In this document: in pieces, positions 8,940 to 63,587 of the stretch
Numbering within the stretch: position 1 is the stretch's first letter
Layout: each line of letters starts with the position of its first letter
Assembly (NCBI GenBank): GCA_030704615.1
Contig: CM060733.1
Location: 310,001-374,000, forward strand
Length of the DNA stretch: 64,000 nucleotides
Direction: 5' to 3'
Source of the DNA: Takakia lepidozioides
Taxonomy: Eukaryota; Plantae; Bryophyta
Translations under genes and position numbers: made by a program
The notes under the pieces: generated by a model
What the model saw: only the letters and a program-made list of their open reading frames with translations
Told to the model about the DNA's origin: nothing
The model's database searches: none

Positions 8940-9350
8940 ATAAGGGGCCAGGTTTGAAGGGGTGTGTGCGGAGTAGAGAGTGGTCCAGGAATTTAATAGC
9001 GGGTGATATAGTAAGTTACACACCACGACTTGAATTAGGAACCGTCATGTAAGGGGGGTAAGAAAGAAGAAGGCATGAAGCCGACAACTATTAAATGGGG
9101 GAGGGTTCAGGCTGCAAATTGGGTAAGAAGGTGTGGCATGCCGGTTTCTAGGGCAACCTTCTAAAAGGGTCCCACCGCATGAGGATTCGGGAGGGTCCCA
9201 CCACCCTAAGAGGGTATATAAACGAGAGGCCCCTGCCTAGTAATTACTAAGTTACCACTTACTAGTTAATAAGTGGTGGGCTTTGCAGGCGCAGCGCAGG
9301 GCCCCCAAAAAAAAAAAACATAAACACGAACCATAGGTATATTAATTAAT
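8940..9350. repeat. Dispersed repeat with an inverted copy at ~36720-37385; Helitron-like hairpin+CTAG motifs
   Basis: About 270 bp (8940-9210) matches the reverse complement of 37125-37385, e.g. GGGTTCAGGCTGCAAATTGGGTA vs TACCCAATTTGCAGCCTGAACCC. 9240-9310 matches the reverse complement of 36723-36790. Confidence 0.75.
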
Positions 9351-35990: not shown

Positions 35991-36719
35991 GTAACAGTTC
36001 CGCGAACAGGCATGTGTTTTCTGTATAGAACCTATTAATCCCGTACCATTTCTTAATTGCAATTCTGTACCCAAGGGTACCTTGAGGCGCAAACGGCCCC
36101 TCATGCCTCGACGCTCATGGCACCGATGAGTACATTTCGCGTGAGCAGCAGTGTTGGCTGACAGCGAATTCGGAAGTGTACAGGAGAGGGGTGTGGAGCC
36201 CAGCAGTTGTCGTGGCCTCTTCCTGCGACTGAGAGGGGGCGCGCGTGATAGCGTTTGATCACCTCCCCTTGACCAACTCCTTCAAGAGCAACGCCTCACA
36301 CGCACCCCCTCCTGCAAGTACTTTACTCATCAGCATGCCAGCCAGTGTTTTCTTTTAATTTCCAAAATCGCTGGCGGAACCACATGTGCATTCTACCCGG
36401 TGCCCACGTGGCCAGACTAACGAGGCGGCAGGGTTAGAAAAGTGGCTATTTACCAGGTGGCACGATTTAACTGGTCCTCGCAGGCTCTTGATATTGAACT
36501 ACTAGTAAATATTCCAGCAGCTCACACATTTTCCAGGTCGAAATCTGGCAGTTTTCAGCCAGAAAGAAAAACACTGTGCCGCCATCGAAATTACATCAAC
36601 CAACGTCCTTCCGGCCCTTTCATACCCTACTTGCAGTTCAGATCTAGCAAAAATTAATTGAAATCCGAGTTGCTAACTACCGTATTGTGGTTTCTATTAA
36701 TTAATAGATTCATGTTTGC

Positions 36720-37385
36720 TGTTTTTTTTGGGGCCCTGCCTCTGCAGAGCCCACTACTTACTAATTTAGTAAGTAGTAAGTTACTAGGTAGTAAGAGGTC
36801 TCAAGGGGTAGGGCTTTCTAAGAGGTCCCAGGGTCGGAGGGCTTCTAGAAGGGTCCCTGGACACATGTGAGCCCTATCTAAATTTGGCCAATTTAATACA
36901 TCTGGCGTTCCTCCCTTCTTTTTTTTGACCCCTTATCTTATTCCTTAATACATTGGTCTTATTACATAAGCCCCCCCACTCTAACTCCTGGGCCACAGGG
37001 CTCAAATGAAACATGGAATTGTTCTACATGTTTTGGAGTGTATATGAATTAATATACCTATGGTTCCTGCTAGTAAGTTCTACGCAAGGGCTCTCCATGG
37101 TAGGACCTTTCTAGAAGCCCGCCCAATCCTCACGCGGTGGGACCCTTCTAGAAGGTTGCCCTATGACCTGTGTGAGCCTTAGAAACCGGCATGCCACACC
37201 CTACCCAATTTGCAGCCTGAACCCTCCCCCATTTAGTAGCTGTCGGCTTCATGCCTTGTTTACCCCCTTACATGACGGTTACTAATTCAAGTCGTGGTAC
37301 AGTTTACTATATCACCCGCTTTTTAATTCTTGGACCACTCTCTAATCTTCACACCCCCTTACAAACCTTGGCCTCTTATTTAATT
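36720..37385. repeat. Inverted copy of the 8940-9350 dispersed repeat
   Basis: Reverse-complement match to 8940-9350, with blocks rearranged. Confidence 0.75.
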
Positions 37386-39622: not shown

Positions 39623-40482
39623 ACACACTGTTCGTCTTGCATGCTCCAACTTCATCACCCCGGCCTACGTTTTCTAAAGCATCTACGTGTCGGAAAATTC
39701 ATAAGAGTTTACTGCTTTCAATGGGAGAGGGTGTGAAGATCTGCAAAAGGTCTGAGTAGCATATCAGAACATTAAGAAAGAGCACCAGAGGAGCACCCGT
39801 AAGGGTAAGAGAGTTCAGTAGGAAGCGGCCGATGGGGAACGGAGCTCTCAGGGTGACCATGGGATTTTCTCCCCTCTGGCAATGTACTCCCCCAACCCCA
39901 AAGGTTTCCCCTCAAGCTCTGGTAGCTTTTGGGCTCTCTCCTCTGTCAAGTTATTTTACCACTAGTGTGAAACTAGCTAGGAAATAGCTAGCTTTTACAT
40001 ATTGACATTTGGGATTGGCCCAAGTATCAATCCAGGGGTCAAGGCAGATTTAGGCCCTGGAGTGGTTATCTTCACGGAAAGCGCGGGAGGCTTATCTTTC
40101 TCGAGTTGAGCCTCACCGCGCTTAGCTATGGCGCCGTAGTGTGGATTCCCCATGGCGTGGGGTGCACTTGGCTTGACTTGTATTTGAGTGATGAGGTTAT
40201 ATATGCATGAGTTTATGCTTCAGCTTTGTGAGCTCGCATGAGCTTGTGCTTGTATTCTTCTTCTTTATCACTCGAGAAATATCAGCTCGTATCTGTGAGT
40301 GCCAGATACGAGTTAGTTGTAGCACTTGTGGTTTTTGCTTGAGAATGAGAGAAACCAGGTTGTTATGCAAGGAGCATCGTGGAGCCCTTGGTTGTTAGAA
40401 GCGGAGGTGATGTGGGTTACGAGGTGGTAGACCTTGGCATTTGATCTTCAGCTTCAGAGATGAAAGCACCATGCTGCAGGTT

Positions 40483-40830
40483 GCATGTGTGGAGCATGTA
40501 TTCAGCTCATTGAAGCTTCCATCTTCAAGCTTGGAGGGCAAACAAGGAAGAGGGAAGGGCTGACTTCCCTTATGTGAGGGCAATGCATGTGTGGAGCATG
40601 CTTTCAGCCTGTTGAAGGCTTGTACTTTCAGGTTTGGGAATGCAAGAAAGGAAGCAAAGGGGCTGATTCTCTTGTGGTGAGAGTGGGGCATGTGTGGAGC
40701 ATGCCTTCAGTCCATTGGGCTTTTGTTTTCAAGCTTTAGAGAACTAGAAGAGAAGGTAAGGGTCTGATCTGCTCTTATGTGACAGTCCGACACTTGTAGA
40801 GCGTGTTCTGAGTTGGGGTTTCAACCTCAA
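40483..40830. repeat. ~102-bp degenerate tandem repeat x3-4
   Basis: GCATGTGTGGAGCATG recurs at 40483, 40585 and 40688, followed by similar TTCAG..TTCAAG..AAGGG.CTGA blocks. Confidence 0.85.
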
Positions 40831-41217
40831 GCCTAGATAGAGCATGGCTCTTGAAGTGGCAGGTATAAGGGGCTGGAATAGGCTCTAAGACAGATGCTAT
40901 GGCCAAGGAAAGCGCTTGAATGAGTGCTCACAAGGACTGGAAACCAGCAAGGCTTGGTTGTTTGCCATTGAGTTTAGTGGCGTGTTTGGGGAGTCTAAGT
41001 AAGAAAGAAGGTTTGGTTTGTGACAACCATTTTCTTTATGGCTTAGGGCTACTATTGGTGGTGTGTGGGAGCCGAAAGAGCAAGAATACCTTGCTGATTT
41101 CTTCACAGCCGCCATAGCTCGGTGCAAAGAAACCTAGAGTTCAAGAGACACAAACCTTAGCTTGGCGTGGCTAAACCCCTTGGAGAAATGGCTAAACTGT
41201 CATGTGTGGCCATGGAT

Positions 41218-41630
41218 GGGGCTGTGAGGGGATAAGAGGGGCTGTGACAGGCTGTGACAGGCTGTGGCCTTTGGGGCTGTGACCTGTGTAAGGCTGTGAC
41301 AGGCTGTGATGGGCTGTGAGGGGCTGTGCCATGTGGCCTGTGGGGCTGTGACGGGCTGTAAGGGGCTGTGACAGGTTGTGCCCTGTGGCCTGTGGGGCTG
41401 TGACGGGCTGTGAGGGGCTGTGACAGGCTGTGGCCTTTGGGGTTGTGACCCCTGTGACCTGTGTAGGGCTGTGACAGACTGTGCCATGTGGCCTGTGGGG
41501 ATGTGATGGGCTGTGAGGGGCTGTGACAGGATGTGGCCTTTGGGGCTATGACCCCTGTGACATTTGTAGGGCTATGACAGGCTGTGCTTGTGGCCTTTGG
41601 GGTTGTGATGGGCTGTGACGGCTGTGACCA
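41218..41630. repeat. Minisatellite of ~10-bp GGCTGTGACR units upstream of gag
   Basis: Dozens of GGCTGTGA/GGCTGTGG variants with higher-order periodicity. Confidence 0.92.
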
Positions 41631-42649
41631 GTGATCTGTGTGGGCCTGTGCTGGTCTGTGGTGGCCCGTGTTGACTCGTGGACAGCCTGTGCTAACTCGT
41701 GGAGGCACTGGTGGACTGCCTAAGGACTGGCATGTGGTCTTGAAGGCCGAATTTTGAAGCTCGTGGAGGGCGGTTTGAGGAGTATCTTCATGATATTCCG
41801 ATGGTCATGCAAGTGAGGGAAGAGATGAGAAAAAGAGTGTTGGGATGAGGGCATGCTGGGGTTAGGCATTGCTTTAGCTTATCTTAGTTTCCACCCTCTC
41901 ATTAGGCCAAGACTTTTCCGTAGGTGGAGGCAAGAGTCAGTCCGGGTTTGGGCTGGGGTGTCCTTGCAAGAGCAACACCGTGGAGTTGTTTTTTGTGTGG
42001 GGGAGTTGTCGTTCTGATTTCTTGTGTTTGGATCCCCTCCATACTTGCATGCTTGACTGTGCGCCATGCTAGTTTTGTGTGGGCGCTTGTTTTTATAGGT
42101 GATTGGTCCGGATTTGATCACTGGCCAGTCCTAGAGCATGTTGTCGATGGTGAGGCTGGGGTGATGACCAGCCAGACCATCATTGTTTCTCTTGTGGTGA
42201 GGTTGGAGGTGATGACCAACCAACCATAGGAGTGCTTGCGGTGGATGCAGGTACAGGTGTAGGCTATGTTAGGAACTTAGTATTCCAAACCATAAGCCGC
42301 AACAGGTTCTCTACCCGGTTACCTTGTGGAGAGGGGGTTAGGGACATGTTCATGACCGGTTGAGTGTCAACACGGAGGTGCCACTAGTTGCTGGGGACAG
42401 TGCCGGTTCGAGCACTAGCGATACTAGTAGGTACACGAGACAAGGTGTGCGGTTTAGGCCACCTTCACCTCCTGTGTCTTCTACAGAAGGTTCTGATTTG
42501 GATTGTGAATCGGGAGGACTCATATCGGCGGTGCAAGTTGTTTCCTTGCCATTGTTGTGGGACACAATGGAGGAGATGTATGGAGCTACTAAGGGGCCAC
42601 GAAGGTACTCTGGGGCGGTGGGCACCATCGAGTTGGATGGTGGAGGAAC

Positions 42650-43326
42650 GAGTGGTCATGGTGGGATTTGCTAAGGAGACACCACGGGGTAGTGGTGCTC
42701 CTAGCCAACCACTACCTCAACGTGCTCAAGGCAACAATGGGGCTCAGGTGAAGCTCAGGGAATGGCAGAGAGGACCTCAGATGCAGGGGTCTCTCCCTTC
42801 ATTTGCTGGCCAACAACGGGCGGATGTGGTGTGCTGGACATGTGGAGGACCCCATGTCAAGAAGGATTGCCCAGAGGGAGGTAAAGGGCCGGCACATGCA
42901 TAGCCTGCACAGTTGCAGTGTGGGCATTGTGGCAAGCACGGGCATGGAGAGGCCCAGTGTTATGGTTTGCACCCTGAGTTGCGCCCAGGCCAGTTCGAAG
43001 GGAATAATGGTGGTCAGGGGCGAGGTGGAGCAGCCCAGAGAGGACGAGGTGGCCAGGCACGAGGTGCAGGCCAAGGGCAAACTCAACATGGCCAAGGACG
43101 CGGAGGTCAGGGTGTTGACCAAGGCATGGCCAACCGGCTTCAGCAGCTAGAGCAAAGACTTGCTGCCATAGCTACAGCTCAGGTGGTACCAGCTCCAAGG
43201 CCGGATGGTCCACCTCTTGCTCCTGAGGGAGGAGATATGGGAGGTATGGGATTCATGTGCGGAGCAGCACTACCACTAGTGCAGGTGGAGTCTGCTGGAG
43301 CCGTGACTGATGGCACGAGTTCCTGA
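42650..43326 (+). pseudogene. gag: Gag nucleocapsid region with two zinc knuckles and an RGG-rich tract
   Basis: CWTCGGPHVKKDC and CGHCGKHGHGEAQC separated by TAG at 42901, then GQGRGG repeats. Confidence 0.85.
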
Positions 43327-44257
43327 GCCACGAGGTGCAGAGGTGGAGTTGGATCCACAGCGTGGGGAGGCAAGTCATCAGGCTAGGCTTCCTCAGTCAT
43401 TCACATTGGTGGAGACAGTGTCGACGCCATCCATGGCACCTAGTTCTCGCCCGATTATTACCGAGGCGGAGGTTACTATGTCATTGGGGAGAGCTACACG
43501 GGTAGCACCGTCACCTAGTTTTGCCAAGGCTACGGCAGCTAGTGTACTGCTGGGAGCGGGCACATCTGTGTGTCAGGCTCCATTGTTCTCAGCTACTATA
43601 ATTGCGACGTTGGGGGTAAGACCAGCTGAGGTGTTTAGGCTGGCAGCTACACTCTGTGAGAGTGGGGAGGTTACTTCATCTTCTGCGGAGATAGTGAGAG
43701 GTGTAGTGCCGGAGGAATCCTCAGATTTGAGGGTCAAGACTACCACGGCGGCGCCATGGCAAGCTGCAGCTGCCAGGTTGATGGAGCTGCCAGCTAGGCC
43801 AGCCATTGAGCGCGCCATGGTGACACCTGGAGTTGTCATGTTAGACAACCAGGATGTCATTTTCTGTTTGAGTGGACCGGCAGGCAAGAGGTACCGGCCA
43901 CTGCGGGTCTTGTTGGACTCGGGAGCTCAGCCATTGATGCTGGGCAAAGCTGCTATTGCAGGCTTGGGCCTCACGGAGGCAGATATGGAGCCTTGTCCTT
44001 TCCAGATACAGAGGTCTCTGGGAGGATCGGAGCAGGCTCGGGGCATGACACGGCGTGAGTTGGCTATCAGACTACGGCCGGATCACCCTACAGATGGCTC
44101 AGTGATGCGAGCCAAGGCCATTGTGACAGACGCGGTCTCGTACAATGTCCTGGTTGGTGGGGCAGTATTGTACCCCATGGGCTTCACCCTGGATTTTTGG
44201 GAGGAGTTAGCTTCCTATAGGCGTGGATGGCAGTCAGGGGAAGGCCGGCGTGTGTAG
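43310..44257 (+). pseudogene. Retroviral-type aspartic protease region of pol
   Basis: RVLLDSGAQPLMLG (DSG catalytic motif) and distal YNVLVG. Confidence 0.85.
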
Positions 44258-44515
44258 CTCCCTGTGACATTCATAGGAGGAGTTGCAGTTGCCCAGCGGG
44301 GCAAGATACCGACACTAGCAGCATTCACAGCTGCAGTGACTTGGCCTGCAGAGTTGCTAGAGGGCAACGCTCATTCAGAGGATGTGTCACCTCCGGGAGA
44401 GCAGGATGATATATATGGTATGGCGGAGTTGCCTGCCATGGTTGCTCAGACTCCATTGTGGGGCACGAGCAAGGATTTGCAGCGGGTTGCTGATCGACGG
44501 GTACAATAAGCCTGG

Positions 44516-45877
44516 GTGGAGGCTTTTGTACCATCAGGAGAGGAGGAGAGTGCGGGGATTGCACCAGGACCACCTCCGTTGTCACCATTGGATACCACAC
44601 CTATTGTGTGGCAGTATCCGGATGAAGGCATTTGTCTTCTGGACTTGTTTGGCGGGATCAGCACCGGATTGGCTGTTGTGTTACAGACAAGTGTACGAGT
44701 TCGGTGTTACCTGTATGTGGAGAGGGATGAGACTGCACGACGCGTTTCACTTCGCCATGTTGCTCAGTTGGTGCAGCAATATCCTGAGTTGTTGTCGGTG
44801 TCTGCAGTTCGTGGATATCAGCAGGCCTTGCCAGAAGACATTTCGTTGCTGGGGGCGCAGGATTTGGAGCGGGTTGGCTCCATTGATCTGGTAGTGGCAG
44901 GTTGGCCCTGCCAAAGGCATTCATCAGCCGGGCATGACAATGGATTGCGAGACTCGAGGTCGAGTCTGTTTTGGGAGATAGTGCGGGTTTTGCGCCACTT
45001 GCAGCTTCATCAAGCTATGTCTCCAGCATACATTTTGGAGAATGTGCCACTGATGGGCGATTCTCGGGCTAGGGTGATGGCCAGTGTGCATCAAGTCCGG
45101 TCGTGGCTTGGGTCAGCAATGTTGCTAGATGCAGCTACAGTGGGGTCACGGGCTCATCGTCCACGGCTATGGTGGACTAACTTGATGCCACCCGCACTGC
45201 TCAAGCGTGCATTTGATAGGGTGCAGTGGCCAGCACACCTCACAGTGGATAGCATTTTGGACACAGGGAGGCAGTCTCAGCTTGTGAGACACGATGACCG
45301 TTCGCCTTTGGCAGTGGTCAACAGGGTGGGTCAACCACGAGCAACATTACCTACACTGCTCAGCTTCCCAGGATCGCATGCTTTCCGGGATAGTGGACCT
45401 GGCCTCCTGTGGGATGCTCAATTGCAGCAGTTAGTGGAGCCTAATGCTGATGAGCGTGAGCGGGCGATGGGTTTTACCACTGGTACCACGGCGGTGTCGT
45501 CTCTTTCTGAGGCATCACGTCGTCAGGTGTTGGGGCAAGCAATGGATCTCAATTGCTTGACCTGGATTATCAGCTTGGCTATGGCTGAGCAACGCAGAGT
45601 GCGCAGTACACTTCCCTCGATGGTCTCTCTGCGTACCGAGACGGTACAGGCAGTGTGTGGGGGCGAGCATGTGAGGACCACGGGGTGTAGGCATCCATGG
45701 CATACATGGGAGGTGCTCGAGGTTCAGAGGGAGTTGGCAGCCAAGGTGGCGGTGATGGATGAGGTTAGGGATTTTTCTCGGGTGGAGAAAGTCCTTGAGG
45801 ATGAGATGATGGGGCAGGATGAGGCCTTGTCACTGACTGAGCAGGTAGGGAGTACTACTCAAGAGGTTGCAACATAG
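44516..45877 (+). CDS. Retrotransposon-encoded C5-cytosine DNA methyltransferase, DNMT3-like (domain ~44630-45580)
   Basis: Motif I LLDLFGGISTG, II YVERD, III EDI, IV IDLVVAGWPCQ (Cys codon 44909-44911), V GLRDSRSSLFWE, VI YILENV, VII LLDAA, VIII AHRPRLWWTNL, IX ERERAMGF, X RRQVLGQAM. Same frame as the protease (43310) and RT (46037). Confidence 0.92.
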   Translation: MEAFVPSGEEESAGIAPGPPPLSPLDTTPIVWQYPDEGICLLDLFGGISTGLAVVLQTSVRVRCYLYVERDETARRVSLRHVAQLVQQYPELLSVSAVRGYQQALPEDISLLGAQDLERVGSIDLVVAGWPCQRHSSAGHDNGLRDSRSSLFWEIVRVLRHLQLHQAMSPAYILENVPLMGDSRARVMASVHQVRSWLGSAMLLDAATVGSRAHRPRLWWTNLMPPALLKRAFDRVQWPAHLTVDSILDTGRQSQLVRHDDRSPLAVVNRVGQPRATLPTLLSFPGSHAFRDSGPGLLWDAQLQQLVEPNADERERAMGFTTGTTAVSSLSEASRRQVLGQAMDLNCLTWIISLAMAEQRRVRSTLPSMVSLRTETVQAVCGGEHVRTTGCRHPWHTWEVLEVQRELAAKVAVMDEVRDFSRVEKVLEDEMMGQDEALSLTEQVGSTTQEVAT

Positions 45878-46036
45878 CAACCACTAGACGCGTCCTCTAC
45901 CTCTAAGCCCACTGGACTTAAGGTTGCAGTTACGGAGAACAATTGGGAGCCTGACATTGGACCCATTGTCACCGGAGGAGAGAGATGACGTATACGGCGG
46001 TTCCTGAGGGCTTACAGGAATTGCTTTGCCTTCAGT

Positions 46037-47386
46037 TTGAAGGACTTGGGAGCACTGAAGGGTCAAGAGATTCGTATTGAGTTGGCCACTGACACGCCAA
46101 TCTTTCGGAGACCCTATAGATATAGTGACATGGAGAGGTCTTTGATTCAGATGAGGACTCGAGATCTCTGGGAGGCAGGTTTGGTGGAGCTCTCTGGTGG
46201 AGAGTATGCTTCAGCCACAGTGATGCCAACCAAGAAGGATGTCTATGGCAATTGGACGGAGAGACGTATGTGCGGTGATTACCGGCCTGTAAATCGTCAG
46301 ACCAAGTCCGATAAGTATGTCATGCCCACACCGGAGGAGATCTTTGATGCCATTGGGCATGCTAAGGTCTTTAGCACTTTGGATTTACGATCCGGATATC
46401 ACCAGTTGCCGATCAAGGAGGCGGACAAGCAGAAGACGACACTCTGGGGGATCAATGAGCACGGCAAGGATTGCCTATATTAGTGGCGGTTCTTACCATT
46501 TGGGCTTAAGAACGCTCCTGCAGAGTTTCAGAGAGTCATGGATAGGATTCTAGCAGGGGTGGACTTTGCTCAGTGCTACATAGATGACATCATCATCTTT
46601 AGTGCTACGGTGGAGGAGCATGAGAGACACCTTTAGGTGGTATTGGAGCGCTTGAGAGCGCACGGATTGAAGTTGCATCCGGGGAAGTGCAAGTTTTTCC
46701 ACAACCAGATTGAGTTTTTGGGTCACATGATATATCCTGGAGGATTGGGGGTACAGCAGACTAAGGTAGAGGCCATTGCACAAATTCCACATCCCACGGA
46801 TGTGAGCCGAGTTCGAGCTTTCATGGGGTTGACAAACTATTATAGACGGTTTGTCAAGGGATTTAGTGCCATTGCAAAGGCTCTAACCAAGCTGGCCAAG
46901 GTGGACCAGGAGTGGCAATGGGAAGATGAACAAGAACGAGCTTTTCAAGAGCTCAAGGCGAGGTTGACCTCGGCGCCTATCCTGAGACGACCTATCAGGG
47001 GGCGTCCCTTTCAGCTGCATACGGATTGGAGCATGTTGGGGCTTGGAGCGGTGCTCACACAAGTGGATGATGAGGGAAGAGAGTTCGTAGTGGCTTATGC
47101 TAGCCGCTCGAACAACGCTGCAGAGGCTAAGTATAGCTCATATGAGGGAGAGTGCTTAGTTGCAGTGTGGGCGGTGGCACACTTCAGGTGCTATCTATAC
47201 GGCAATCTCTTCACCCTTGTCACGGATCACCAGCCACTCAAGTGGTTGATGGAGTCAGACAAGCTTACGGGGAAGCTTGCACGATGGGCATTCATACTCC
47301 AGGAGTATGACTTTCAGGTTGTGTATCGACCGGGTTTGGTCAATCGGGATGCGGATGGATTGAGTCGCAATCCATGCACGAGCTAG
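46037..47386 (+). pseudogene. Reverse transcriptase and RNase H
   Basis: RMCGDYRPVN, FSTLDLRSGYHQ, LPFGLKNAPAEFQR, YIDD, KC.F; RNase H LHTDWS..LGAVL, YASR, E, LVTDHQPL, RWA, NRDADGLSR. TAG stops at 46481, 46634 and 47384. Confidence 0.95.
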
Positions 47387-47759
47387 CAGGATGATACTGG
47401 AGCTCGGTGGCATGGTGAGACGGACGAGGAGACGGTGTCGGGATGGCATGCATCTGCCTTTTTGTGTATCTTGGCATCGGGAGGTCAGGTTGGACCTACA
47501 ACAGGGATGACTGTAGACGGAGTGTCTGAGGACCCTGAGGCTAGTGATAAGCCAAGTGGTACCAGAGATATACATGAGGATTCGACTATGTTGGACTACC
47601 TCCGTACTGGAGACATGGCAGCCACTGTGACTGCCAAGGAGAGGGATCGGATCCTGCAACGAGCCAAGAGGTTCAAGTGGGAGGGGATACATGTGCTCCG
47701 AGTATGGGAGAATGGTCGGATGAGGATTGTGCCTCACCCTACACAGCGTGCACGGTTAG

Positions 47760-48860
47760 TGCGGCATGCCCATGAGGAGTTGGGGCATTTTGGAGTGTGA
47801 CGCACTCACAGTTTACTGTAGGGGCGGTATTGGTGGCATGGTATGCATACAGAGGTGCAACAGTTCGTGGCTAGGTGCATGGTGTGTGACAGGGTGTGTG
47901 CTTCATTCAACGCCCCTACACCACAGTTGCATCCTTTACCAATCATAGGATTGGGCTACAGGTGGAGTCTTGACTTCGCAGGACCGTTGTCACTGACTAT
48001 GCGCCACCACAGATATGTGTTGGTGATGGTGGAGCACTTCTCCAAGTGTTGGTTCCATTGCCTGACAAGGCTAGTCAGGGGGCTGCGTATGCATTCTTGG
48101 ATCGTGTGCTTAGCCGATTTGGTGCTCCAGCTGAGGTACTCACGGACCAAGGGAGAGAGTTCTTGGGGGAGTTTCAAGCTTTGTGTGATAAAGCATTGAT
48201 AGACCACCGCACCACTTCTCGGGATCATCCTGAGGCCGATGGCTTGGCAGAGAGAGTTGTTTAGACGGTGAAGAGGGGTTTGCGCAAGTATGGCTTGCAG
48301 AAGGGACACCTAGGAGATTGGGATCTTCAGGTTCCTTGGTTAGTCATGGGCTACAGGTTCAGCAAACAAGCATCACTTGCCTCTTTCTCACCATATTTCA
48401 TTCTCTTTGGCCGAGTGCCGGATTTGCCTGCAGCCATTCGTAGGGACACTGCTCAAGTCCTTAACCTTGACGATCCGGACATGTGGGTACGTACATGTGA
48501 TCAGCGTGCAGAGTTGTTCAAGAAAGTCATGCCCATGGCTTTTGAGAACCTTGTCATTGCACAGCACCGTGATACGTTGAGGTATGCCACTATACGTGCT
48601 GGAGGATATCGTCATGGGGTTCGGAGGTTTAGCCCTGGTGACTATGTTTATTTGCAGCAGACTGCTCCTACGACTCTAGATATTACTGCAGGGCGTGTTA
48701 TTCTGAGGGTTCGAGAAGTGTTGCCCTCAGGGGTCCTGATCTTGGAGGGTCGGGATGGCATGACTTGGAAGGACCATGTGCGTAATTGTGCGCCATGTCA
48801 CCTTCCCAATGTCGATGGCAGAGTTGACCCAAATTTGGCAGTGGTACCTGCAGGTTTGAG
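47760..48860 (+). pseudogene. Integrase (HHCC zinc finger and DDE core)
   Basis: HEELGHFG...CMVC; WSLDFAGP, VEHFSK, VLTDQGREF, HPEADGLAER. Stops at 47798, 47819 and 48262, frameshift near 48048. Confidence 0.93.
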
Positions 48861-48861
48861 G

Positions 48862-48996
48862 AGCATGCTCTGTGGGTCTGCCAAAGGGGCAGCCACCATG
48901 ATGGTGTGTGATCGATGCTCAAGGGGTTGGCATATGGGATGCTTGACACCACCTCTTGAGAAGGTTCCTGACGGAGATTGGTTGTGTCCACATTGC
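48862..48996 (+). other. PHD finger at the integrase C-terminus
   Basis: (S)MLCGSAKGAATMMVCDRCSRGWHMGCLTPPLEKVPDGDWLCPHC fits C4HC3 spacing with the first Cys read as Ser. Confidence 0.92.
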
Positions 48997-51900
48997 TTGG
49001 AATAGTGGTAGTGGACATGACTGGAGGCAGCTAACAAGACATGGGAGGCTAAGCTCATAGGAGTCAATACACGAGATCCCAAGCTCAAGTTCACAGATTG
49101 CAAGACGGCGACTAACGATGGGGCAACTCTTGCACCCGGCCTCTTGATCTATCGAGTTTGAGTGTAGTAGGGATAGTGGTGGAGGACTTAGTGAGGCTAT
49201 GGTCACTATCACATCTTGTGGCTACCTGGACTTAGAGGGACCTAAGCACCAGCTAGGGGGACGATTGTGTGGACTAGTGACTGCCATAGTGGGCAGCATA
49301 GTGGCAGCCTAGTGATTGACTATTTGTAGCCTAGTGGTTGGACTAGTGGTGGACTAGTGGTATACTAGTGTGTGGTGTGCACATATGTTGTGTGGTTTTG
49401 GACAACGATGTACTACCTTCCAGCTGAAAGAAAAAGAATGAACGGCCAGAGCTGCATCACCTATCAGGGATCCGTCAGCAGTGTCTCCATCGGCCTTGCC
49501 CCTGCTTCCATGCAAGTAGCCACATTTGTTAAGACAACTTGCTAGATGTCCAGGCCTCTTTGCGTGCTAGTAATTTGTTTTGAACGACTTGGGACATATT
49601 ATCATAAAATCAGTGTAGACTCAGACGGCGTCGTAATGGAACATAACAAGCTCCGTTGCAAATGTAATTTTGGGCAGAAAAATCATAGGCACATACAGAT
49701 CTTGCAACATAATAAAAATATACGTCGACATATAACTCGCCGCTCTGATAAAATCCCAATCCCCTGTATAACGTAGTTTAAGAGCTTCCACCCTCCTATT
49801 CGTAGCCAACCACTCTCATAAAGATCTGTATGAAAGTAAATGAACTAGCTAATATCTATGAACTATAGATAGTATGAAATGAACTAGTAAACTTCGTTTT
49901 TGACCATACCAAGCCTCACCGGACTTCCCTGGATCTCCCTCCTCATGCTGGTCCTCATTGCCGCCAGCCCCTAAGGGAGACGAACCTTAAATGGACAGTC
50001 TACCTAGTTCGCATGGATAGAGTGAGCAGGACAATATAAAAATAATTTTCATGGATTAGCAAATCGAAAAGAAGTATGACCCAATTTTCTAGTTGAATTT
50101 ATAGTGATAATATGAAATAGATATGATTTTTCAAAGTCTGGGACTCGTAGACACCTATTTGTGGCACATAGGCCCCCCCCCCAAAGCAAACAAAAATAAT
50201 CCTATTATGGTTACTTTGTCATCCAATTTTAATTTTAATTGGTCCTAAAGTAGACATGAACATAGCCTTATGTGAATATGGTTAGACCTTAAATGGACAT
50301 CATTGATGGCCAATGTGGCCCAACAGAGTTAATGTATCATGCTACTCTGACCCTGGCGGCCCGCATGAGGGAGCGTTTTTCTAAAATATCCCAGCTAACA
50401 TCCCCTAAGGCCTAGGCTGAAGACCATCAATTGACCAATCACCCTAATAAATATGTTTAGCCCTCAGAAGTGGTACTTGATATTGCATTAACCACACGTT
50501 GTCTTGAGCGAAACTCCTAGCCCGCTGTCCCAAAAATCCCAATGATTAACATATGTGTAACCCTCTTTGATCCTAAATCGGTCACATATTCCCCTCAATG
50601 TGGTCCCATTTCCTGAATGTCACTATAATGTAAAGGCATTGTCACTTTAAGGTCAAAACATAGGTGTCCATCAACATTTTTTTTTTTCATTTAAGAACTT
50701 GAGCCACGTTGGCTCTTGGCTGGCCTATGAGGAAGATCAATTTGGTGACTCTGTGGCATGTGATCTCGAACCGGTGGCAACTGTCAAGAATGTTTGAGGA
50801 GTTTTATGCGAACTCAACTCATGTAGTGTTCGGTTTGTGGGAGCGACAAGGGAGGTAATTTTTTCTAAGCAACAACAAAGCCTAGCACAACTTTGTCACA
50901 TGGATACAATCCATTGACAAATATGACTAATCTTGTGCAAGATCAGCAACTCTGCTCAAAGCCTCATGTGCCAGTGCAAGAGATGGTGCAAGTCTGCTTA
51001 AATGGAGGTGCATGACACGGATACTAGGCGGGGAAGCGAAACCTAAATGAGAGTTCCCTCCATAACTCGACCCCTTGGCGAAAGCGGGAAGAGTTTGAAC
51101 CCAAGGATTTGCTCCTCGCGTTGGCAGGGTGGTAGGGTTTCTAGAAATCGATAGGCAAGATCATCTAGATCTAACGAACCCAAATGGCATGTGGCTCTTT
51201 CCATGTGCGACAGTTGTACAAGCGGCGTCCTCATTGCAACGACATGATGGCCTTAGGGAGGGCAGTAATGCAAAACAGTGCCATATTTTAACCCATAATT
51301 CCTTTGTAAATTTTGTGAGGCCAATTTCTGGATCGAAAAGTGGCGAAATTTCGGGCATAAAAAAAACGCTGGTGTCCATTTAAGGTCACCGACCATTTTA
51401 GATACGTCTCCCTTACCGCTATCTCCCTCCTCCCACCGCTAGTCCTCATTGCCGCCAGCCCCCCACAAGCCTCCACCACCATCACCCCAGTGCGATGTCG
51501 TACCTCTGGTGGTACTGTACAGCCACAAGCGGCTATCGAACACCAGTCTACCACACTGCTCCTCTGGTACTCCCTCTACTCTAGAGCCTTTGCCAAACTT
51601 GGCTTGGGCATGCACTAATAGCCATGTGCTCCTTGGAGCAATAGCCCGGTTCATGCCACTGCATGCTTGGAGCGCCTCTCTCGGGCATGCAGTGCCAAGG
51701 TGCCCCGCCATGCAATGGGCATACATGCCCACATGGGGCCCCACATGCAATAGCCACGACGCGCTGCTCACTCCTCCTCGACTTCCAGACACCGGCTTCC
51801 ATGTCGACTGCCCATTGAGGGACTTTTTTTCCATTCAACTTGGGGTACATATATAGCGGCCGTTCCTAAGTGGACTGCCCCTATTGGCCTGCATCACTGT

Positions 51901-53168
51901 GCTGTTTTCCACTAAAAAGATGACCATTATGGTGTCTCGACTACTCAGGACGACTGCCTTCCGTTGGAAGGTGCAGACTTTGAATCCTAGATCACCGTGG
52001 TTATGCAGAGGCAAACTCCCAACCACTCGCATACCTGCTCCAGTGCTCATGTCTCAAATGTCTATCTGCAGTTGGTGTGCCCTCATAATATAAGGAAGGG
52101 AGCCATGAGTCAGCCTGGCCCACTCTTGAAGCCATCGCACTGCTGGCTTGCACGGCAGCTGTGCTCTTGTCCTCTCTCTCTTAACTTACTTGTTGCACTA
52201 CACCACAGTGTGCGAAGACCCACATGACAGATTGACAGAATCAAAATCTCAGGGGGTGTTAAGAATTACTGTTAGTTATCATCATTCCCATGGAAGGTGC
52301 TCTTTTGTACCTCCTCAACAAACTAAGTACTTGAAGAAAGTTATCTGACTGCTGGAGCGTCCACCCTCCCTCATGTCTGTATTAAAGATTTGGATTCATG
52401 TTTCTCTCTCACAGCGCCCTGTGTTCCGACTTTGTAGCTCTCTAGGGGCGGGGTGGGCCCTCTGCAGATTGCCCTTCGACATTCCACTCTACTCTACCGG
52501 AATTTTTACCATCTCTTTGCGTGCAAGTCTGGACATAAAGTGACCATTCGTCACTGTCAGTGGACTTCAGGAGATCTATGCTCTGTTCTTCTCTCTGAGT
52601 GTGGGTTTCGCTTTGCATGAGCGCTGTGTATAACTTCAAATACTACAGTCTACTCTACGGCAAGACTTTCCTCTTCTACGATGTTTTGTGGAATTCCATA
52701 TTGTCCCAGTGGAACCTATGATTTCTGTGTCTGCGAGGACAATGATTCTGTCTCCAGATCAGTTTCTCTGGATAAAACACACTTTGGAATGCGAGGATGA
52801 GTTCCTCGATTCCATCAGTTTGTTGTTGTCTGATCTCCAGCTATCCCTGGGATGAGGTTCTTTCGTCACCCAAAGGCGGCAGGAGATCTAGACGCCCAGT
52901 TTATCAAACTCCACCTCACCATCGCGGAAAGAACAAAGTGAGGAGTTCGTCATCAGTTGTAAGTATCCCAATCGCGCTCTGTAGAGTGCCTTCCTCACTA
53001 CCAAGTTACTCGAGGACTGCTTCCATGAGGTTCGAAATGTCCCTTTATCTTACAAAGAACTGTTTGTAGAAAGGAGGTCGTAGCTACAGGAAATGGGGTG
53101 GAAAACACGGCTCTCATTTAAGTAGTGATTGCCACATTTTTCAGGGTGGCAACTTCCTTGATCGCGTC

Positions 53169-56100
53169 ATGGCTGCGGCACATGCTAGCCTTTGCCAATC
53201 TTATATTCCCCTGGCTGATACATCTGCGCCAAATGTAATACGAGGGAAGGACGCCACTGCATCAAGCACACTAGTGTCCATTTCCATTTATAGCAATTTG
53301 ATGGGGCGCACTTATTTAGCAAGACCACAGAAACTTAGATTTGATCAACAGCTATCACAAGGATTGCAGCGAGCATCTGGAAATGAAAGGCTTCGTGTAT
53401 CTGGCAACCACTTGCGGAGAAAAAATAGTGCAAAAGAGATCAGTTTTAGTCCGGGAGGGCCGAGTGTGTCAATCCAATTTACAACATCCATGCATTCAAA
53501 TCACCAAAGAAAAAGCCGTCAACTGTCTCTCGCTGTAGCGCCCCTAACCTTTCTCGAGAAGTTGCCAGGGCCATCGCGTTCTCCCGAAAAAGTGGCCAGC
53601 GGTTTAACTTCTTTGAAGAATGTAGCGCTCCTTCAAGACAGCCTGGGCACTTTGAGCCGATCCATGGCTTCAGTGGTGCAGAAGGCAACAGAGTTCTCAA
53701 ATGTGCCCACCCCTTCTCCAAGCCTGCAGTTACTTCGGCAATCCTCTTCCAGTCTCTGGCAAGCTGCTGCAACTGTTACCAAGTCAGCGAGTGTTGGACA
53801 ATTAAGTCACTCAGCATCCATGGTGCTGCACAATGCTCAGGCCCTGACTTCTGAGATAGGCTCGAGGGTCGCCCACCTGGCATCAGGCAGCTTAGAATTC
53901 CACACGCCCTCGCTGTCTACTTCAGCAGAGCATTTGGCTAGCCAGATTGGGACAACTGTAGGAGGGTACTATGAAGGGCTGGGCATAGAAGCCGCCCCAA
54001 TGACCACAACAGCTGTGCTCGCCACCATAGCCACCTCATCGGTTGTTGTTTCTTCGCTGCATTTCACCGAAAACAAGAAGGCTGTCGTGGAGGGAAAAGA
54101 TTTACCTTTGAGATACAACCCCGATGCAATTGCTTCATATTTCAAAACAAGACCAATTGATATAATCATACGGTCCGTCAAAATCATGTTCGAGTGTTGC
54201 ACATTGACGGCCAACATTCTGATTGACAAGTACGTTGGGCGGGAACAAGATAATCAGAGACTCCGCGCAACGCAGCTAGTGGAGCTGGTGGCCAGGCTTG
54301 GACCCACAGCTATCAAGGTCGGGCTCTGAACATCTCCATCTCAAGCACTTGCACCATCCTGAATACAATACAAATGTCAAAAATTGAGAAATGGGTCACT
54401 TATATAGTTGTAGGCTTTCTTTGTGCCCGGAAACCTTGTACTGATGCCCAGCTATCCAAGTCTCATGCTGCAGGGAGAGAGGATGAGGGAGGAGTGTTAC
54501 CCAATTAACTGTTTTGTACCAAGTATTTGCTTTCTACACTCCAGCAACCATTCTACTAAGGGAGGCGTTGTATGTACAGAAACTTTTCCTGCCAGTAGCC
54601 ATGGGTGCTGGGACCGTGATAATTTTGCCATGTCTTTCATAAGCTCCTCTTTCTTCAAATTAAGTTATAATATTTCACCTAATCCCTTGACGTGGCCACT
54701 GCATGCTTCTATTTCTCCTCATTCCACCCGTCTGACATTGTAGAGGGAGCTTAGCTCAAGAGGCTCAGGGGCCCTATTCAATGTCACATTAGGCCATATG
54801 GATACCGAGGATCTTGCTAGAAAGGTGATTAATGTTTTTAATTTTCTAAACAAGGTTATCGTGGTGGGATCAAAACCTCAGTAAGATGAATGTTCTTTGT
54901 CTCGGTGGCTGTGTTAACAGATAGGGCAGGCACTGAGTATCAGGCCTGACATATTACCAGTGGTTTACCTGGAGGAGTTACAAAAGCTTCAAGATCGTGT
55001 CCCTCCATTCTCAAACACAGAAGCCAAGCAGTTAATCCTTGAAGGCCTGGGCAAAGATGCGGAAGAAATTTTCTCTGAGATCTCAGTGGAGCCAGTCGCT
55101 GCAGCATCTCTAGGGCAGGTAGTCACACTTCCACTTCTTTGGATGGTTAGTTAAAGAAAGAAAAATAGTAACTGATAACTTCCATGAGAGGGAGAGAGAG
55201 AAATGAGAGAGAAATGCTATTGTCCAGACAGTTCCATAGATGTTACAATGGCAATTGTCATGGATTCTCACACGAAACATTTCAGGTTTACAAAGCACGG
55301 TTGCAAGAGACTGGAGATATTGTTGCAGTCAAGGTTCAGAGGCCAGGGGTCCTGGAGGGGGTTTCCCGTGATCTCTATCTGCTAAGGACAGGAGCACGGT
55401 TGCTTCAAGCTCTACCATTCATGCAAACAGACTTTGTTGGTCTTCTCGACACCTGGGCTCTCCGCTTTTTCGATGAGCTTGACTATGTGCAAGAGGTGGC
55501 TGCTCAAACCCAAACTCTGTTTGCATCAAATAATTTAGTCCCACCATTCCCCTAGTCCTGCTCCCACTTACCTCCCCCTCTCCTTCTGTTCCCTCAGGCA
55601 CAATTGCTATGGCCACATATCTATAGACGAGGGAATTATGATGCCCACAGGAGGCCAAGATGGCAGAGAGAGAGTATTCATTGGTCTTTCCCTGCGGAAG
55701 TGTATAATCCCCCAAGATACCAGCACTGGTTGCAGGATTTGAACATATATACGGAAGTCACAGGCAATTGCCATATCATCCGTGCATAGCTGATGACATA
55801 TTGGTCATAGGGGATACAGCCTGGATTTGTGGGTTGCCATTTTCATCATGCTAAAAAGCATGACTTTTATTCCAGCACTGCTCTCTAGCTTGCAACAGAC
55901 CTGGGCAGTATATGGCTGTAATTACACCTCAGTGATACTTGTGAGAAAGGGTGGCGAAACTTTGTAACATCCCTGGGAAGCTTGAGCAAAGAAATGAAGT
56001 GATACTTCTATAATGTCTGTTGGGAAGCTATGGGACAAGGGAAAGCATGAAACAAGAAAGAGAGTGGGGCCCTCCACATGCAGCCCGGAAACAACTATTG

Positions 56101-59100
56101 ATCAAGGGATTGTCCAAGAGTGAATGCCTCATGCAGTCATTAACTGAGAGCTCAGAGTGCTCATTGGAGAAAAATACAGAATAAATAAGGAAATCAGCAC
56201 CAGAAACCAGGGCCAAATTTCCTGCATGAAGATGGAGTATCTTGTGAAGGAATGCTGCCTTCAGAACAAGATGCCTCTCCAGAAATGAGCACTTCCTGAA
56301 GAGCGTAGTATCTCCCTCTAATCTCCTACTACATAGGGCAGGAGGAAGAGAAGTGATGTTCTATCGGACAGTGTGCGTCATACAATCTGGGCATTATGTC
56401 CTACTCTCACAAAGTACGGTAAGCCCTCTGCCTAGCTCAATCTGAAGATTGTGCGAACAGACTCTGAGAGCACTTTATAGGGCAGCACATTGATGCTCTT
56501 TCAGAAGCCAGCTGCGCAGAATCTGAAGGCTTGACTTGATGATCTTGGAGCAAAGCTGTGTTATCACTGACAACAAAAATATATGTGGCCACTGTGCAGG
56601 GCAAGAATGCAATCCGGTTCTCAAAGGATATGAGATTTTTGCCAAATGTCACTGTTCCTGATGTTTATCCCTCACACACCTCCCGCAAGGTACGCTACAT
56701 CTGTACGCTGCCTAAGCTGGTTTTGTCTTTGACTTTGGTGTTTTGAGGGAGAACGAGCACATGGCTGTGGAAATACAAAGGCCATGTAAACAATGACATT
56801 TCTTAGCTCTCGTATGTGGGCTTACACCACGTTAACCAGATTACTAAATATTGACTATATGTTGATCCGTAGGTGCTAACAACTGCATGGGTGAATGGAG
56901 AGAAGTTGTCAGAGAGCAATGCGGCCGATTTGTTGCCACTGATCACAACGGCCCTTAATTGCTACCTAATACAACTGCTAGAAAGTGGGTTTCTTCACGC
57001 TGATCCTCATCCTGGCAACCTTCTGCGCACAACCGATGGCCGTCTGTGTGTCCTGGACTTTGGGCTTATGACCGAGGTGCGCACTTTTTGGCTCCCCCTC
57101 CTCTCTGTTTCTCTATTGCGTGTGTAAAATTGTGTTTGATTTTTCAGGTGTCATTTAAAACCGGTAAAGGACTGTAATTTCACAGGTTACTGAAGACCAG
57201 CGCTACACACTCATGGAATACGTTTCTCACCTGGTGAACTCAGACTATGCCCGTGTTGCGGAGGATCTGGTGAAGCTAGGCTTTGTGCCCGCAGAGTTTG
57301 TGGACCCAGAGAAGACTGCTGCAGTGGTGCCACAAATCAGTCGAGTGCTGGGCCAGATTGTTCAAGGAGGCGGGGTCCAGAAAGTCAACATCCAGCAGGT
57401 ACATTGCTTGTTTGGATAGATAATGGAATTTTGTGGAGGCTAGTAAGGCAGGTGAAGAAGTTGGTGATGTACTCATTGCATTTCAAACTCGCATATTGAT
57501 TGTCAGCTGAAGGAAAATCCCCTACACAGATCTTCCCAATCATCTTACCAAACTTTCTTGTAGCATTGTGTAGGTCACAGACGATCTTATCAAGATTTCG
57601 AAAGACTACGTGTTTGTGATCCCACCCTACTTTGCCCTCATACTGCGTGCCTTCTCGGTGTTGGAAGGAATTGGGCTGGACGCTGATCCTGACTACACCA
57701 TTGTCCATGAGTGCTATCCATACATCTCCAAACGACTGCTCACTGATGACAGGTATCTTTGCCAATGTCTCTTATGAAAGAGCTTGCCTGCAGGAGCAGC
57801 TTTGGGGCGGGCGGGGGGATGAGAGAGCAAAAAGGAAATTGAGAGTCTAACGGTGGGGAATGTGTTTCCAGTCCTCGAACCCGCGTGGCTCTACAGTATT
57901 TCTTGTATGGGGGAAAGACCCAGCTGGATATCCAGAGGGTGGAGGACATAACTGCCGGGTTTCAGAACTTCCGAGAGCTCATGGTGCCCACCAATGGTGA
58001 GGCCGGGCAACCTCCCAAACTAAAGCCTATAGATCCATGGACCAAAGAAGCCTTGCTGTTGCTTTTTGCTCCTGAAGGAAGTTTTGTCCAAGAGCTTCTT
58101 CTGACTGAGGTGTGTCCTCTCTCCCTCAAGGGGTGACGTTGCCAGGTTATCTAGTACATACATAGTTCTCATGCACAAGATCTGGACTTCGTGCTGAAGT
58201 TATAAATTTCCTTTCCTTCTTTCTTCCTTTACCATATGTATTTCCATTTTATCTCAACAGTACAACCAGCAGTGCAAGCACAGACATGTGTGACATTAGT
58301 TGTAAGCTAGAGGGCTAAGGAGCAGTGATAGCATTAACCTCATGCTGTGCAGTATACAAGGTTACAGAAACTATAATCATCAATGGACTTTCTCTTGCCC
58401 TGAGTACCTTTATACCAAGGCTCTGTGCTGGCTTGATAAATGGGAGAACTTTCCCTTTGAAGAAAATCCCTGCTTTTACCATTGTAGCTGCCTGAAACCA
58501 AACAAGGACACAAACGAGCTACTTTCATGTTTTCAAAACGCAAGAATAGTGTCCCAGAACTTTTCTGATGGGTCTTTGGGATCTGGCAGCTTGTACGTGC
58601 AGTGGATGCCCTTTCTCGGGAGGCTTTAGCAGAGCTCTGGCACTACTTCGCAACCACGATACGCATCCCTCTCCCAGCATCACTGGTTGCCCCCGGGTCC
58701 TGGCCGCTTCCGCTACCTGGCCTTGTGATGGGGCTCAACCCTGTGGCTAAACTCTCTGAGGAGGACCAAAAGTCGCTCAAAACAGTAAGAAGGCTATGGA
58801 TACTGATTGAGCCCCAGCTCAATCGACAAAGCTCTTTTGCAGGTACGTAAAATATGAACAACTCTACAATTATCATAGTGCGATGTGGGTGGAGTATTAC
58901 TTGGCAGACTAAGTAGTCATTCCTGCACTCGTACACCCTTCCAATGAACAAGCTGTTGGAAGATTAGAACAAATCTCCTTGAGATCCTTGACTCAACCTT
59001 GACATATGAACAAGTGGGGACTTACAACTACCTAAGGGGCATCCCACACTGCAAAGCTGAAGCTCAACTGAGAGCAAGTTAATCCAGCTGGGAGAAAGAG

Positions 59101-62306: not shown

Positions 62307-62720
62307 CTTCACAAGGAGAAAGCAGGTTAGCTGATGCACCACCATAAAGGACTTGAGGGAAGACATGTACTGTTTGGCTGTTCCTTGCAAACGCTACCTA
62401 TGACGTTGAGGGCATAGTCCTGGCAGGATGCTTAACCTCGTGGCTCTGCCTGGTGGGGCTTGGGCCACTGAAGGTATGGAGCTCCTGCTGAAATTGAGAG
62501 AGTAATAGAGAATATACTTAATATCAAGGGAAGTCCCCCACTTACCGGGCCTCCCTGTAAGTACCCCACTACCAGAGTGAGCCCCTCACAAAGGTAGTGT
62601 TGGTTCTGTTCCCTTTAGTTCCACTCAAACTGGGCGCAGGGTCTATGGCATTCACAGAGGCACTTGTCTCTCTTGAGAGAGAGAATGTACTCACAAGACT
62701 TTGTTTCCTGTAGCCTTGTG

Positions 62721-63587
62721 GCATAGACCCCGAGCCCAATTTTGGCAGAACAAAAGGGAGCAGATACTACCTTTGTGATGGGCTCACTCCAGTAGTGTGA
62801 CTTAATACAGACAGTTAGTTACGGTTTTCCAGATATCCTGTAGAAAGCCCTTCACACAAGCATCAACTTGCTACGTGTGAGCTGTCAGCAGTCAGACCCC
62901 AAGAAGGCAAGGGCTTTAGCCTCAGCCTCAAGATTGGTGGAGAGATTGTACTCATAAGACGTTGTTTGCCGTAGTCTTGTGACCATTGACCCCGCGCCCA
63001 GTTTGAGCGGGAACAAAAGGGACAGAACCTACCTCTGTCAGGGGCTGACGTTGGTAGTAAGACTTACCTTCATATATAGAATTAATCCGGGTTTTCCAGA
63101 TATCCTCTAGAAATCCCTTCACACAAGTATCAATCTGCTGTGTGTGATTTGCCCAAAAACTAGGCCTCAGGAGGGCCTGGGCTTTTGGCTCAGCCTCGAG
63201 ACTTTCAAAGTTGGTAAACAGGGGTACAGGCACAATTCCCTTGATAGATTTGAAGAGAGCGTCTCTTTGGTGAGAGAACCCCGGACAGTGTATCAGAAAA
63301 TGAATACTGTCTTCAGATTGCCCACACAACGGGCAATTGCACTCTCCCTTTCCTCTCTGCTTCTGTTTGCTGTTCAAAGGTAGGCTTCCTGCCCTGAGTT
63401 TAAATTTCAGTCTAGTGCCGAGAGTGGGTAGACCCTTGAGGTCATCCAAGATGTCCTCCCCCATGTCACTGAGCAGTAGCACAGCTACAAATGAAATGAA
63501 ATGGTACTTTATAACGTCCGCGGAAAGCTCATAGAGCTTATGGGACAAAATGGAAACATGAGAGAGGAACAAGTCCAGAAACCACAA
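62721..63587 (-). mobile_element. Non-LTR retrotransposon 3' end with C-terminal CCHC zinc finger, plus a tandem partial duplicate, in an ABCC intron
   Basis: GTRLKFKLRAGSLPLN...CPLCGQSEDSIHFLIHC. 62721-62935 duplicates 62988-63200. Confidence 0.75.

Follow-up and report, generated by a model that had tools for sequence, protein, structure and literature searches.

We focused on a retrotransposon in a 64,000-nucleotide stretch of the Takakia lepidozioides genome (assembly GCA_030704615.1, contig CM060733.1, positions 310,001 to 374,000 of the forward strand). This stretch is hereafter the window, and coordinates are window positions. The element belongs to the Ty3/Gypsy retrotransposons of the green lineage, and this copy of it is dead. 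From 42567 to 49005 it encodes, in order, gag (two zinc knuckles), a protease, a DNMT3-like cytosine methyltransferase (DNMT), reverse transcriptase (RT), RNase H, integrase and a PHD finger. What is new here is a conserved in-frame stop in a leaky-type context (TAG-CAA-CCA and a covarying 3' stem) that splits DNMT from the RT-RNase H-integrase-PHD part. The features, including open reading frames (ORFs) 1 and 2, are as follows.

39965-40271, + strand: 5' terminal repeat, part A (start approximate, taken from the 307-342 nucleotides of A in relatives L005 and L064)
42567-43179, + strand: gag remnant with two zinc knuckles, one frame break and one stop (42901)
43787-44254, + strand: aspartic protease region with LLDSG motif (weak Pfam Asp_protease_2 match, E 0.029, under the cut-off)
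44618-45595, + strand: DNMT3-like C5 cytosine methyltransferase domain, the last of ORF1 (PF00145, 51.1 bits)
45875-45883, + strand: conserved in-frame stop TAG in CAA-CCA context, predicted to be leaky; ORF1/ORF2 boundary
45887-45992, + strand: RNA stem predicted downstream of the stop, with paired arms at 45887-45904 and 45972-45992
46061-47350, + strand: RT and RNase H (Pfam RVT_1; RT_RNaseH, 119.6 bits)
47760-48795, + strand: integrase with H2C2 finger, core and GPY/F-like stretch (Pfam Integrase_H2C2; tblastn of P0004 domains; start approximate)
48862-48996, + strand: PHD finger at the integrase C-terminus (PF00628, 41.7 bits)
49255-49412, + strand: polypurine tract (49255-49261), then part B of the 3' repeat, truncated (49264-49412)

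The window copy has 10 in-frame stops besides those at 45875 and 49003, and 3 frame breaks. Four stops fall in the RT and RNase H part, between 45986 and 47384. Three stops and one frame break (48046-48049) fall in the integrase part. In tblastn with the Marchantia-labelled protein P0112, residues 1-24 align to 42567-42638 and residues 236-415 to 42637-43179. Relative to that protein, about 211 codons of the gag capsid region are missing. The Asp_protease_2 match is stronger in an intact relative, locus L026 (E 0.0002). Methyltransferase motifs I, IV (PCQ), VI (ENV), VIII (RxR) and X are all present in the window DNMT. When the DNMT domain of L026 was compared with the PDB, the best 29 of 45 matches were DNMT3A/B/C.

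A preliminary description, made from the window sequence, placed a C4HC3 PHD finger where chromoviruses carry a chromodomain. Our analysis agrees. The PF00628 match has an E-value of 1.2e-10, against a curated Pfam cut-off of 24 bits. The finger sits after the integrase core and the C-terminal GPY/F-like stretch, and the ORF stop (49003-49005) is just downstream. No chromodomain match was found at the integrase C-terminus in the window, in L026 or in the 30 family proteins scanned. Seven of the eight zinc ligands are kept; the first Cys is replaced by Ser (AGC, 48862). Host copies of the element were examined through contigs of public sequencing runs. At position 48862 these read T in 825,698 of 825,759 summed depth (run X1, 80 contigs), and three other runs concur. 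Hence, related copies in the host encode Cys, and the Ser is private to the window copy.

What the finger may read was assessed from its residues. The aromatic cage of ING- and BPTF-type H3K4me3 readers has an invariant Trp two residues before the zinc-binding His. The window PHD has Gly there (G-W-H, 48925-48933), as first described. So do all 16 PHDs of the window's subclade and 91 of 103 from elsewhere in the family, and Trp occurs in none. These tallies cover the 125 of 156 family PHD matches that fitted the pattern used. Among the 60 of 81 PDB matches listed, the relatives are cage-less or double PHDs, such as those of CHD4, KDM5 (PHD1), BHC80, ATXR5, AIRE, BAZ2 and UHRF1; no ING or BPTF entry is among those 60. 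An AlphaFold2 model of the finger from a 6-row alignment was poor (pLDDT 50.8). A complex prediction for an intact family PHD with the H3 tail scored 0.19 against a mark of 0.34, and was used neither way.

Contacts of the ATXR5 PHD to Ala1 and Arg2 of H3 have been described (bioRxiv 2020.10.15.341198). The window PHD has the motifs V-C-D and, before and at its last Trp, P-D-G-D-W. Subclade PHDs have a hydrophobic residue before Cys3 (16/16) and the Arg2-binding Asp after it (15/16). For the Ala1 pocket, they have Pro four residues before the Trp (15/16) and Gly two before (14/16). Hence, by comparison with the ATXR5 contacts, residues for binding Ala1 and Arg2 are kept. Our best guess is that the PHD binds the H3 N-terminus with no room for trimethyl-Lys4.

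A clear preference for unmethylated Lys4 (H3K4me0) is less sure than the preliminary description held. Two features characterize readers of H3K4me0 (PMC3241642): acidic residues clustered upstream of Cys1, and a hydrophobic residue preceding Cys3. Three observations count against such a preference. The acidic cluster is absent from the window PHD and present in only 3 of the 16 subclade PHDs, compared with 83 of the 103 others. Mean net charge is +1.6 in the subclade and -3.6 elsewhere in the family. Of the Arg2-binding Asp residues of ATXR5, the second has no counterpart. Hence, the proposed reader type is supported in that the cage is missing and the nearest solved relatives read unmodified H3. 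It is weakened because the subclade lacks the acidic patch as well as the H3K4me3 cage. The land-plant subclade PHD could instead have drifted, to bind H3 regardless of Lys4, or another host factor or DNA, as a mark-blind tether. The lost patch and reversed charge fit such drift, and strong purifying selection on the PHD indicates that some function is kept. Conversely, the residues contacting Ala1 and Arg2 are retained, and in fingers of the ATXR5 type Lys4 is recognized mostly by main-chain and hydrophobic contacts (bioRxiv 2020.10.15.341198). In addition, a conserved Asp or Glu about 12 residues upstream of Cys1 could provide the acid. We consider drift to a mark-blind tether unlikely and retain H3 N-terminus binding that excludes trimethyl-Lys4.

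We next consider how the PHD and DNMT are distributed. Family searches gave 110 matches for integrase-PHD and 54 for DNMT; for RT-RNase H, the best 150 representatives and then the best 120 of 1,738 were taken. The set was partly found with PHD or DNMT queries and is biased toward both domains. In an RT-RNase H tree of 164 rows, one clade of 130 has an SH-like support of 97 (FastTree, no bootstrap). Its labels include Chlamydomonas eustigma, Haematococcus, Klebsormidium, Closterium, Marchantia and Calypogeia. Among named relatives, those closest to the window element come from Marchantia, Calypogeia, Riccia and Sphagnum. Going by these sequence labels, the clade spans green algae, Klebsormidium, Closterium, liverworts and moss. 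The clade excludes the Dam-bearing elements as well as the tree's three proteins with a chromodomain. Long-branch rows P0162, P0163 and P0062 are of unsure placement on all trees.

A C-terminal PHD is present in 75 of the 130 rows. The other 55 end too early to show whether they had one, among the truncated sequences being L003, and no row has a whole C-terminus without a PHD. DNMT comes in two layouts, which form separate groups on the DNMT tree (support 87): in the first (22 rows) it precedes RT, and in the second (45 rows) it stands between RNase H and integrase. The catalytic Cys, the Glu and both Arg residues are kept in 31 of 36 proteins of the first layout and 44 of 44 of the second. 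We also tallied 77 metagenome loci selected by RT, leaving out the distant L073, L078 and L080. Both domains were found in 24, and 42 were too short for one or both. The 11 lacking one domain are broken or deleted copies, so that a clean single loss was seen in none. Proteins P0067 and P0077 are continuous from protease through PHD but contain no DNMT; together with P0057 and P0075 they are nested in the second layout (support 100). We read this as one loss of DNMT in that group of four, PHD being retained. Two further candidates for loss were set aside: P0091 starts with the apparent end of a degenerate DNMT, and an apparent frameshift explains P0079, which has no PHD.

Selection was estimated between L026 and L034, which are open from protease to PHD save one stop. 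The ratio of nonsynonymous to synonymous substitution rates was 0.042 for PHD (48 codons), 0.112 for DNMT, 0.037 for RT and 0.025 for the integrase core. These low ratios indicate that PHD and DNMT are both maintained by purifying selection. The preliminary description had named co-occurrence across related elements as a check. The domains do co-occur across the clade, but by one inheritance, which cannot show cooperation, and DNMT has been lost once with PHD kept.

Some sequences carry other combinations. Neighbouring Gypsy lineages outside the clade (P0288, P0377, P0379 and P0394) lack DNMT; in them a Dam precedes RT, and a PHD is placed between RNase H and integrase. Among algal-type proteins, P0050 (1738-1770) and P0076 (868-904) have a weak D12-class adenine-methylase match after the PHD, below the cut-off (E 0.003 and 0.002, respectively). 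If the match is genuine, P0050 would combine a DNMT3-like domain, a PHD and a Dam-like domain and be a PHD counterpart of the EpiLTR elements described below. Algal-type P0070 (1552-1606), P0039 and P0150 have extra domains, with a weak PTM/DIR17 Tudor match after the PHD and PF01585 matches. Many Marchantia-labelled gene models annotated as 'DNA methyltransferase' or hypothetical (P0111, P0112 and P0114-P0122) correspond to ORF1 of the element.

In the window copy, CAA CCA comes directly after the TAG at 45875. Positions 45873-45883 showed no variant of at least 5% in the four host runs covering them. A stop caused by decay, at 45986, served as positive control: there, C accounts for 767,378 of 773,380 depth. 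Among loci with a measurable junction (L017, L060 and L075 left out for large indels), 41 of 42 have an in-frame TAG or TAA followed by CAR. Because it is fixed in host copies and kept in relatives, the stop at 45875 is conserved and not a product of decay. The intact L026 has 1,369 codons of Gag-protease-DNMT, then TAG CAG TTA, then 1,047 codons of RT-RNase H-integrase-PHD. ORF1 and ORF2 share one frame, and this TAG is the only stop between them. The first Met of ORF2 is residue 117, within RT.

In the window subclade, DNMT thus ends ORF1 and PHD ends ORF2. Between the two lie 1,089 codons, with the stop and the regions for RT, RNase H and integrase, and DNMT and PHD would share a chain only upon readthrough. 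Since the conserved stop separates them, DNMT is likely made at the Gag level without the PHD. We conclude from this layout that PHD and DNMT are likely to be mostly separate proteins with separate jobs. The preliminary description proposed otherwise: that the element had rebuilt the logic of DNMT3 and its ADD domain in one polyprotein, to target integration to H3K4me0 chromatin and supply methylation. In animal DNMT3A the ADD adjoins and regulates the catalytic domain. The element is alike in combining a DNMT3-type catalytic domain with a zinc finger of the cage-less class. It is unlike in that its finger is a canonical PF00628 PHD, located on the integrase, far from DNMT and past a stop. Hence, the gap of three enzymes and a conserved stop argues against ADD-like coupling, and the proposal was not borne out.

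Near-complete co-occurrence and purifying selection on both domains would fit a joint unit that finds H3K4me0 chromatin and methylates it where the element inserts. Moreover, both proteins could ride in the pre-integration complex without sharing a chain. In the 45 algal-type proteins, DNMT lies directly before integrase-PHD in one ORF, so fusion is possible there; it is for this layout that the ADD comparison is most tenable. However, the co-occurrence is a single inherited event, DNMT occupies two different places and was once lost with PHD kept, and PHDs also occur in Dam-bearing relatives without DNMT. The ADD itself is confined to animal DNMT3, and land-plant DNMT3 has DUF3444 instead (PMC12344493, PMC6453930). 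Taken with the stop, this makes an ADD-like unit decidedly unlikely. Separate proteins with separate jobs remain our reading.

We predict that the stop at 45875 is leaky and that readthrough joins ORF1 to ORF2. The CAR-YYA context is the signal of tobacco mosaic virus (TMV), for which 6-10% readthrough was measured in transgenic plants (PMC2754532). The second codon after the stop differs between subfamilies (CCA, CTA, TTA or TCA), so that all four YYA codons are represented, as are both CAR codons. Hence, the encoded amino acid varies while the bases keep the signal. Strict TAG-CAR-YYA is found in the window, L003, L019, L022, L026 and L034. An in-frame UAG followed by CAR-YYA is shared with TMV-type readthrough (PMC2754532) and with the pol-env stop of SIRE1 (PMC2194720). 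In contrast to these, the stop here follows protease and DNMT rather than Gag, and its readthrough is a prediction from sequence. The RNA stem begins about 13 nucleotides past the stop in 6 of 6 sequences folded. In the window its duplex reaches -20.3 kcal/mol; of 200 other stretches compared, none pairs as well, and of 500 synonymous recodings, 1 does. The arms covary: duplexes within groups range from -10.7 to -24 kcal/mol, and those between the two groups are mostly -5 to -13 kcal/mol. In viruses, 3' stems of this kind raise readthrough (PMC3159437).

Other observations weigh against a leaky stop of this type. In 34 of the 42 loci, the commonest subfamily, the context is CAA-CCC with an ATG right behind, and in 6 of these the stop is TAA. 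Folded singly, the sequences give z-scores of only -0.6 to -2.4, and for 4 of 7 sequences the stem is matched in pairing by 21 to 53 of 500 recodings. The arms were picked by eye, and RNAalifold on a MAFFT alignment of the junction found no consensus structure. Finally, the split is not family-wide: a single ORF carries DNMT followed by RT in 16 other family proteins, some of them gene models, and in 45 DNMT is placed between RNase H and integrase.

ORF2 could also be translated after re-initiation, or from an RNA that is spliced or shorter, in which case DNMT and PHD would never share a chain. We hold this very unlikely: no Met precedes the RT core in L026 or the window copy, 41 of 42 loci preserve both the frame and the CAR codon, and packaging of RT and integrase normally requires fusion to Gag. 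In favour of this route are the TAG-CAA-CCC-ATG of the commonest subfamily and Candida Tca2, where the route past the gag stop was unclear (PMC2194720).

Readthrough of the stop suggests a mechanism in which the two domains act apart. We think it reasonably probable, on present sequence evidence, that the integrase PHD steers integration via the H3 tail and that DNMT methylates the element's own cDNA. The layout observed is ORF1 (Gag-protease-DNMT), the stop and ORF2 (RT-RNase H-integrase-PHD) in one frame. With a TMV-type CAR-YYA and a covarying 3' stem, ribosomes might read through at about 5-10%. DNMT would then be made at the Gag level, in roughly tenfold excess over integrase-PHD. The protease of Ty3/Gypsy elements cuts the polyprotein, and its cleavage would be expected to leave the PHD on the integrase. 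DNMT may be packaged and methylate cDNA inside the particle. The PHD would bind the free H3 N-terminus (Ala1 and Arg2) and could not hold trimethyl-Lys4. Hence, insertion may be biased away from active promoters, in the way that chromodomains act for chromoviruses. Methylation of cDNA in the particle has been proposed for DIRS elements (de Mendoza et al., PMC5890265). Intergenic insertion of the PHD-bearing Gypsy-7a_cRei of Chlamydomonas is 2.6 times over chance, by targeting or selection (PMC9940879).

Two further points tell against this mechanism. The Klebsormidium DNMT was inactive in yeast, a result that its authors call inconclusive (PMC5890265). CpG depletion in the elements (0.53-0.70) is no stronger than in the whole window (0.47), and CpG ratios as a trace of self-methylation thus showed none. 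A more specific version is tentative, and we would not rate it as the probable outcome. In this, the leaky stop of an ancient green-plant retrotransposon lineage would load particles with DNMT at capsid level, and methylated cDNA would land via the PHD on H3K4-unmethylated nucleosomes. The element would be self-camouflaging, pre-silenced in quiet chromatin.

The closest known relative is KnitGypsy-Dnmt3 of Klebsormidium nitens, described by de Mendoza et al. in 2018 with an A...B-A-B repeat layout (PMC5890265). The type has been named Gypsy-DNMT3 of streptophytes (bioRxiv 10.64898/2026.05.21.726589). It shares with the window element the Ty3/Gypsy domains and a DNMT3-like domain between protease and RT. 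Split A...B-A-B repeats are also seen in L005 and L064, and Klebsormidium-labelled proteins fall in the same 130-row clade. However, DNMT of KnitGypsy-Dnmt3 lies in the Pol ORF (PMC5890265), whereas in the window subclade it ends ORF1 before the leaky-type stop. Hence, the window element is a variant of KnitGypsy-Dnmt3. The earlier element came from one alga; the present clade reaches land plants and chlorophytes, and in chlorophytes DNMT sits between RNase H and integrase. A PHD is not mentioned in the main or supplementary text of PMC5890265, though the architecture figure, outside our search, may show one.

Other elements share single traits. The PHD-bearing Gypsy element REM1 of Chlamydomonas was reportedly described by Perez-Alegre in 2005. 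Gypsy-7a_cRei likewise has a PHD in a Gypsy polyprotein, for which steering away from harmful insertion sites was proposed; no DNMT is named, and the legend puts the PHD before the integrase (PMC9940879). PHD-bearing retrotransposons have been called widespread (PMC6673714). Chromoviruses (REXdb, Neumann et al. 2019, PMC6317226) also have a histone-reader domain at the integrase C-terminus. Theirs is a chromodomain, the window element's a PHD, and chromodomain-bearing proteins in our tree fall outside the clade. The accessible text of that paper mentions neither PHD nor methyltransferase. EpiLTRs are long terminal repeat elements that similarly join a chromatin reader with a cytosine methylase (bioRxiv 10.64898/2026.05.21.726589). 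They carry a chromodomain, Dam and a DNMT4-related enzyme at the 3' end of pol, whereas the window copy has a PHD and a DNMT3-like domain and no Dam. We found no paper on the PHD-DNMT pairing, its land-plant range or readthrough in the KnitGypsy-Dnmt3 family in a search that most subscription journals and the Craig thesis fell outside.

These comparisons extend KnitGypsy-Dnmt3 from a single alga to a clade found in both green algae and non-seed land plants. The PHD becomes a third kind of reader fixed at the integrase end, beside the chromodomain and MBD. The position of the stop makes it testable what retrotransposon-borne DNMTs methylate: a Gag-level DNMT predicts methylated cDNA in particles, and ADD-like coupling predicts methylated flanks. 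The window copy itself is dead and ordinary.

A repeat search of the window found no pair of terminal repeats. Judged by eye, host contigs with loose ends before 49264 match window 40246-40270 in those ends. The right end of the element is lost: the copy is cut at 49412, where host contig cover stops, with loose ends beyond. Homology of the part B region to related loci covers 49096-49269. The complete relatives L005:1768-10971 and L064:1676-10805 have 4-bp target duplications at their ends (AAGG and TCTC, respectively). L064 starts with TG and ends with CA; L005 ends with CA and its start is changed. The ends with target duplications correspond to the middle of the repeat following the polypurine tract. 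The long 5' leader of the window element holds a degenerate tandem array of units of about 52 and 103 nucleotides (41190-41660), and a second repeat with 103-nucleotide spacing lies at 40480-40800. The family is abundant in the host. At window 48500-49412, 8,782 contigs of run X1 fall on 1 kb, 2,411 of them at least 99% alike, though depth here gives no copy number.

The window is gene-rich and the copy is intergenic. Host genes flanking the element (831-3353, 16349-18159 and 53070-57330) are an F-box/LRR gene, a kinase gene and an ABC1-like kinase, the latter two named by eye. A small repeat has two inverted copies 28 kb apart (8939-9352 and 36694-37380). A remnant of a long interspersed nuclear element (zf-RVT) lies at 13397-14281, and a hairpin-like repeat cluster at 62567-63201.

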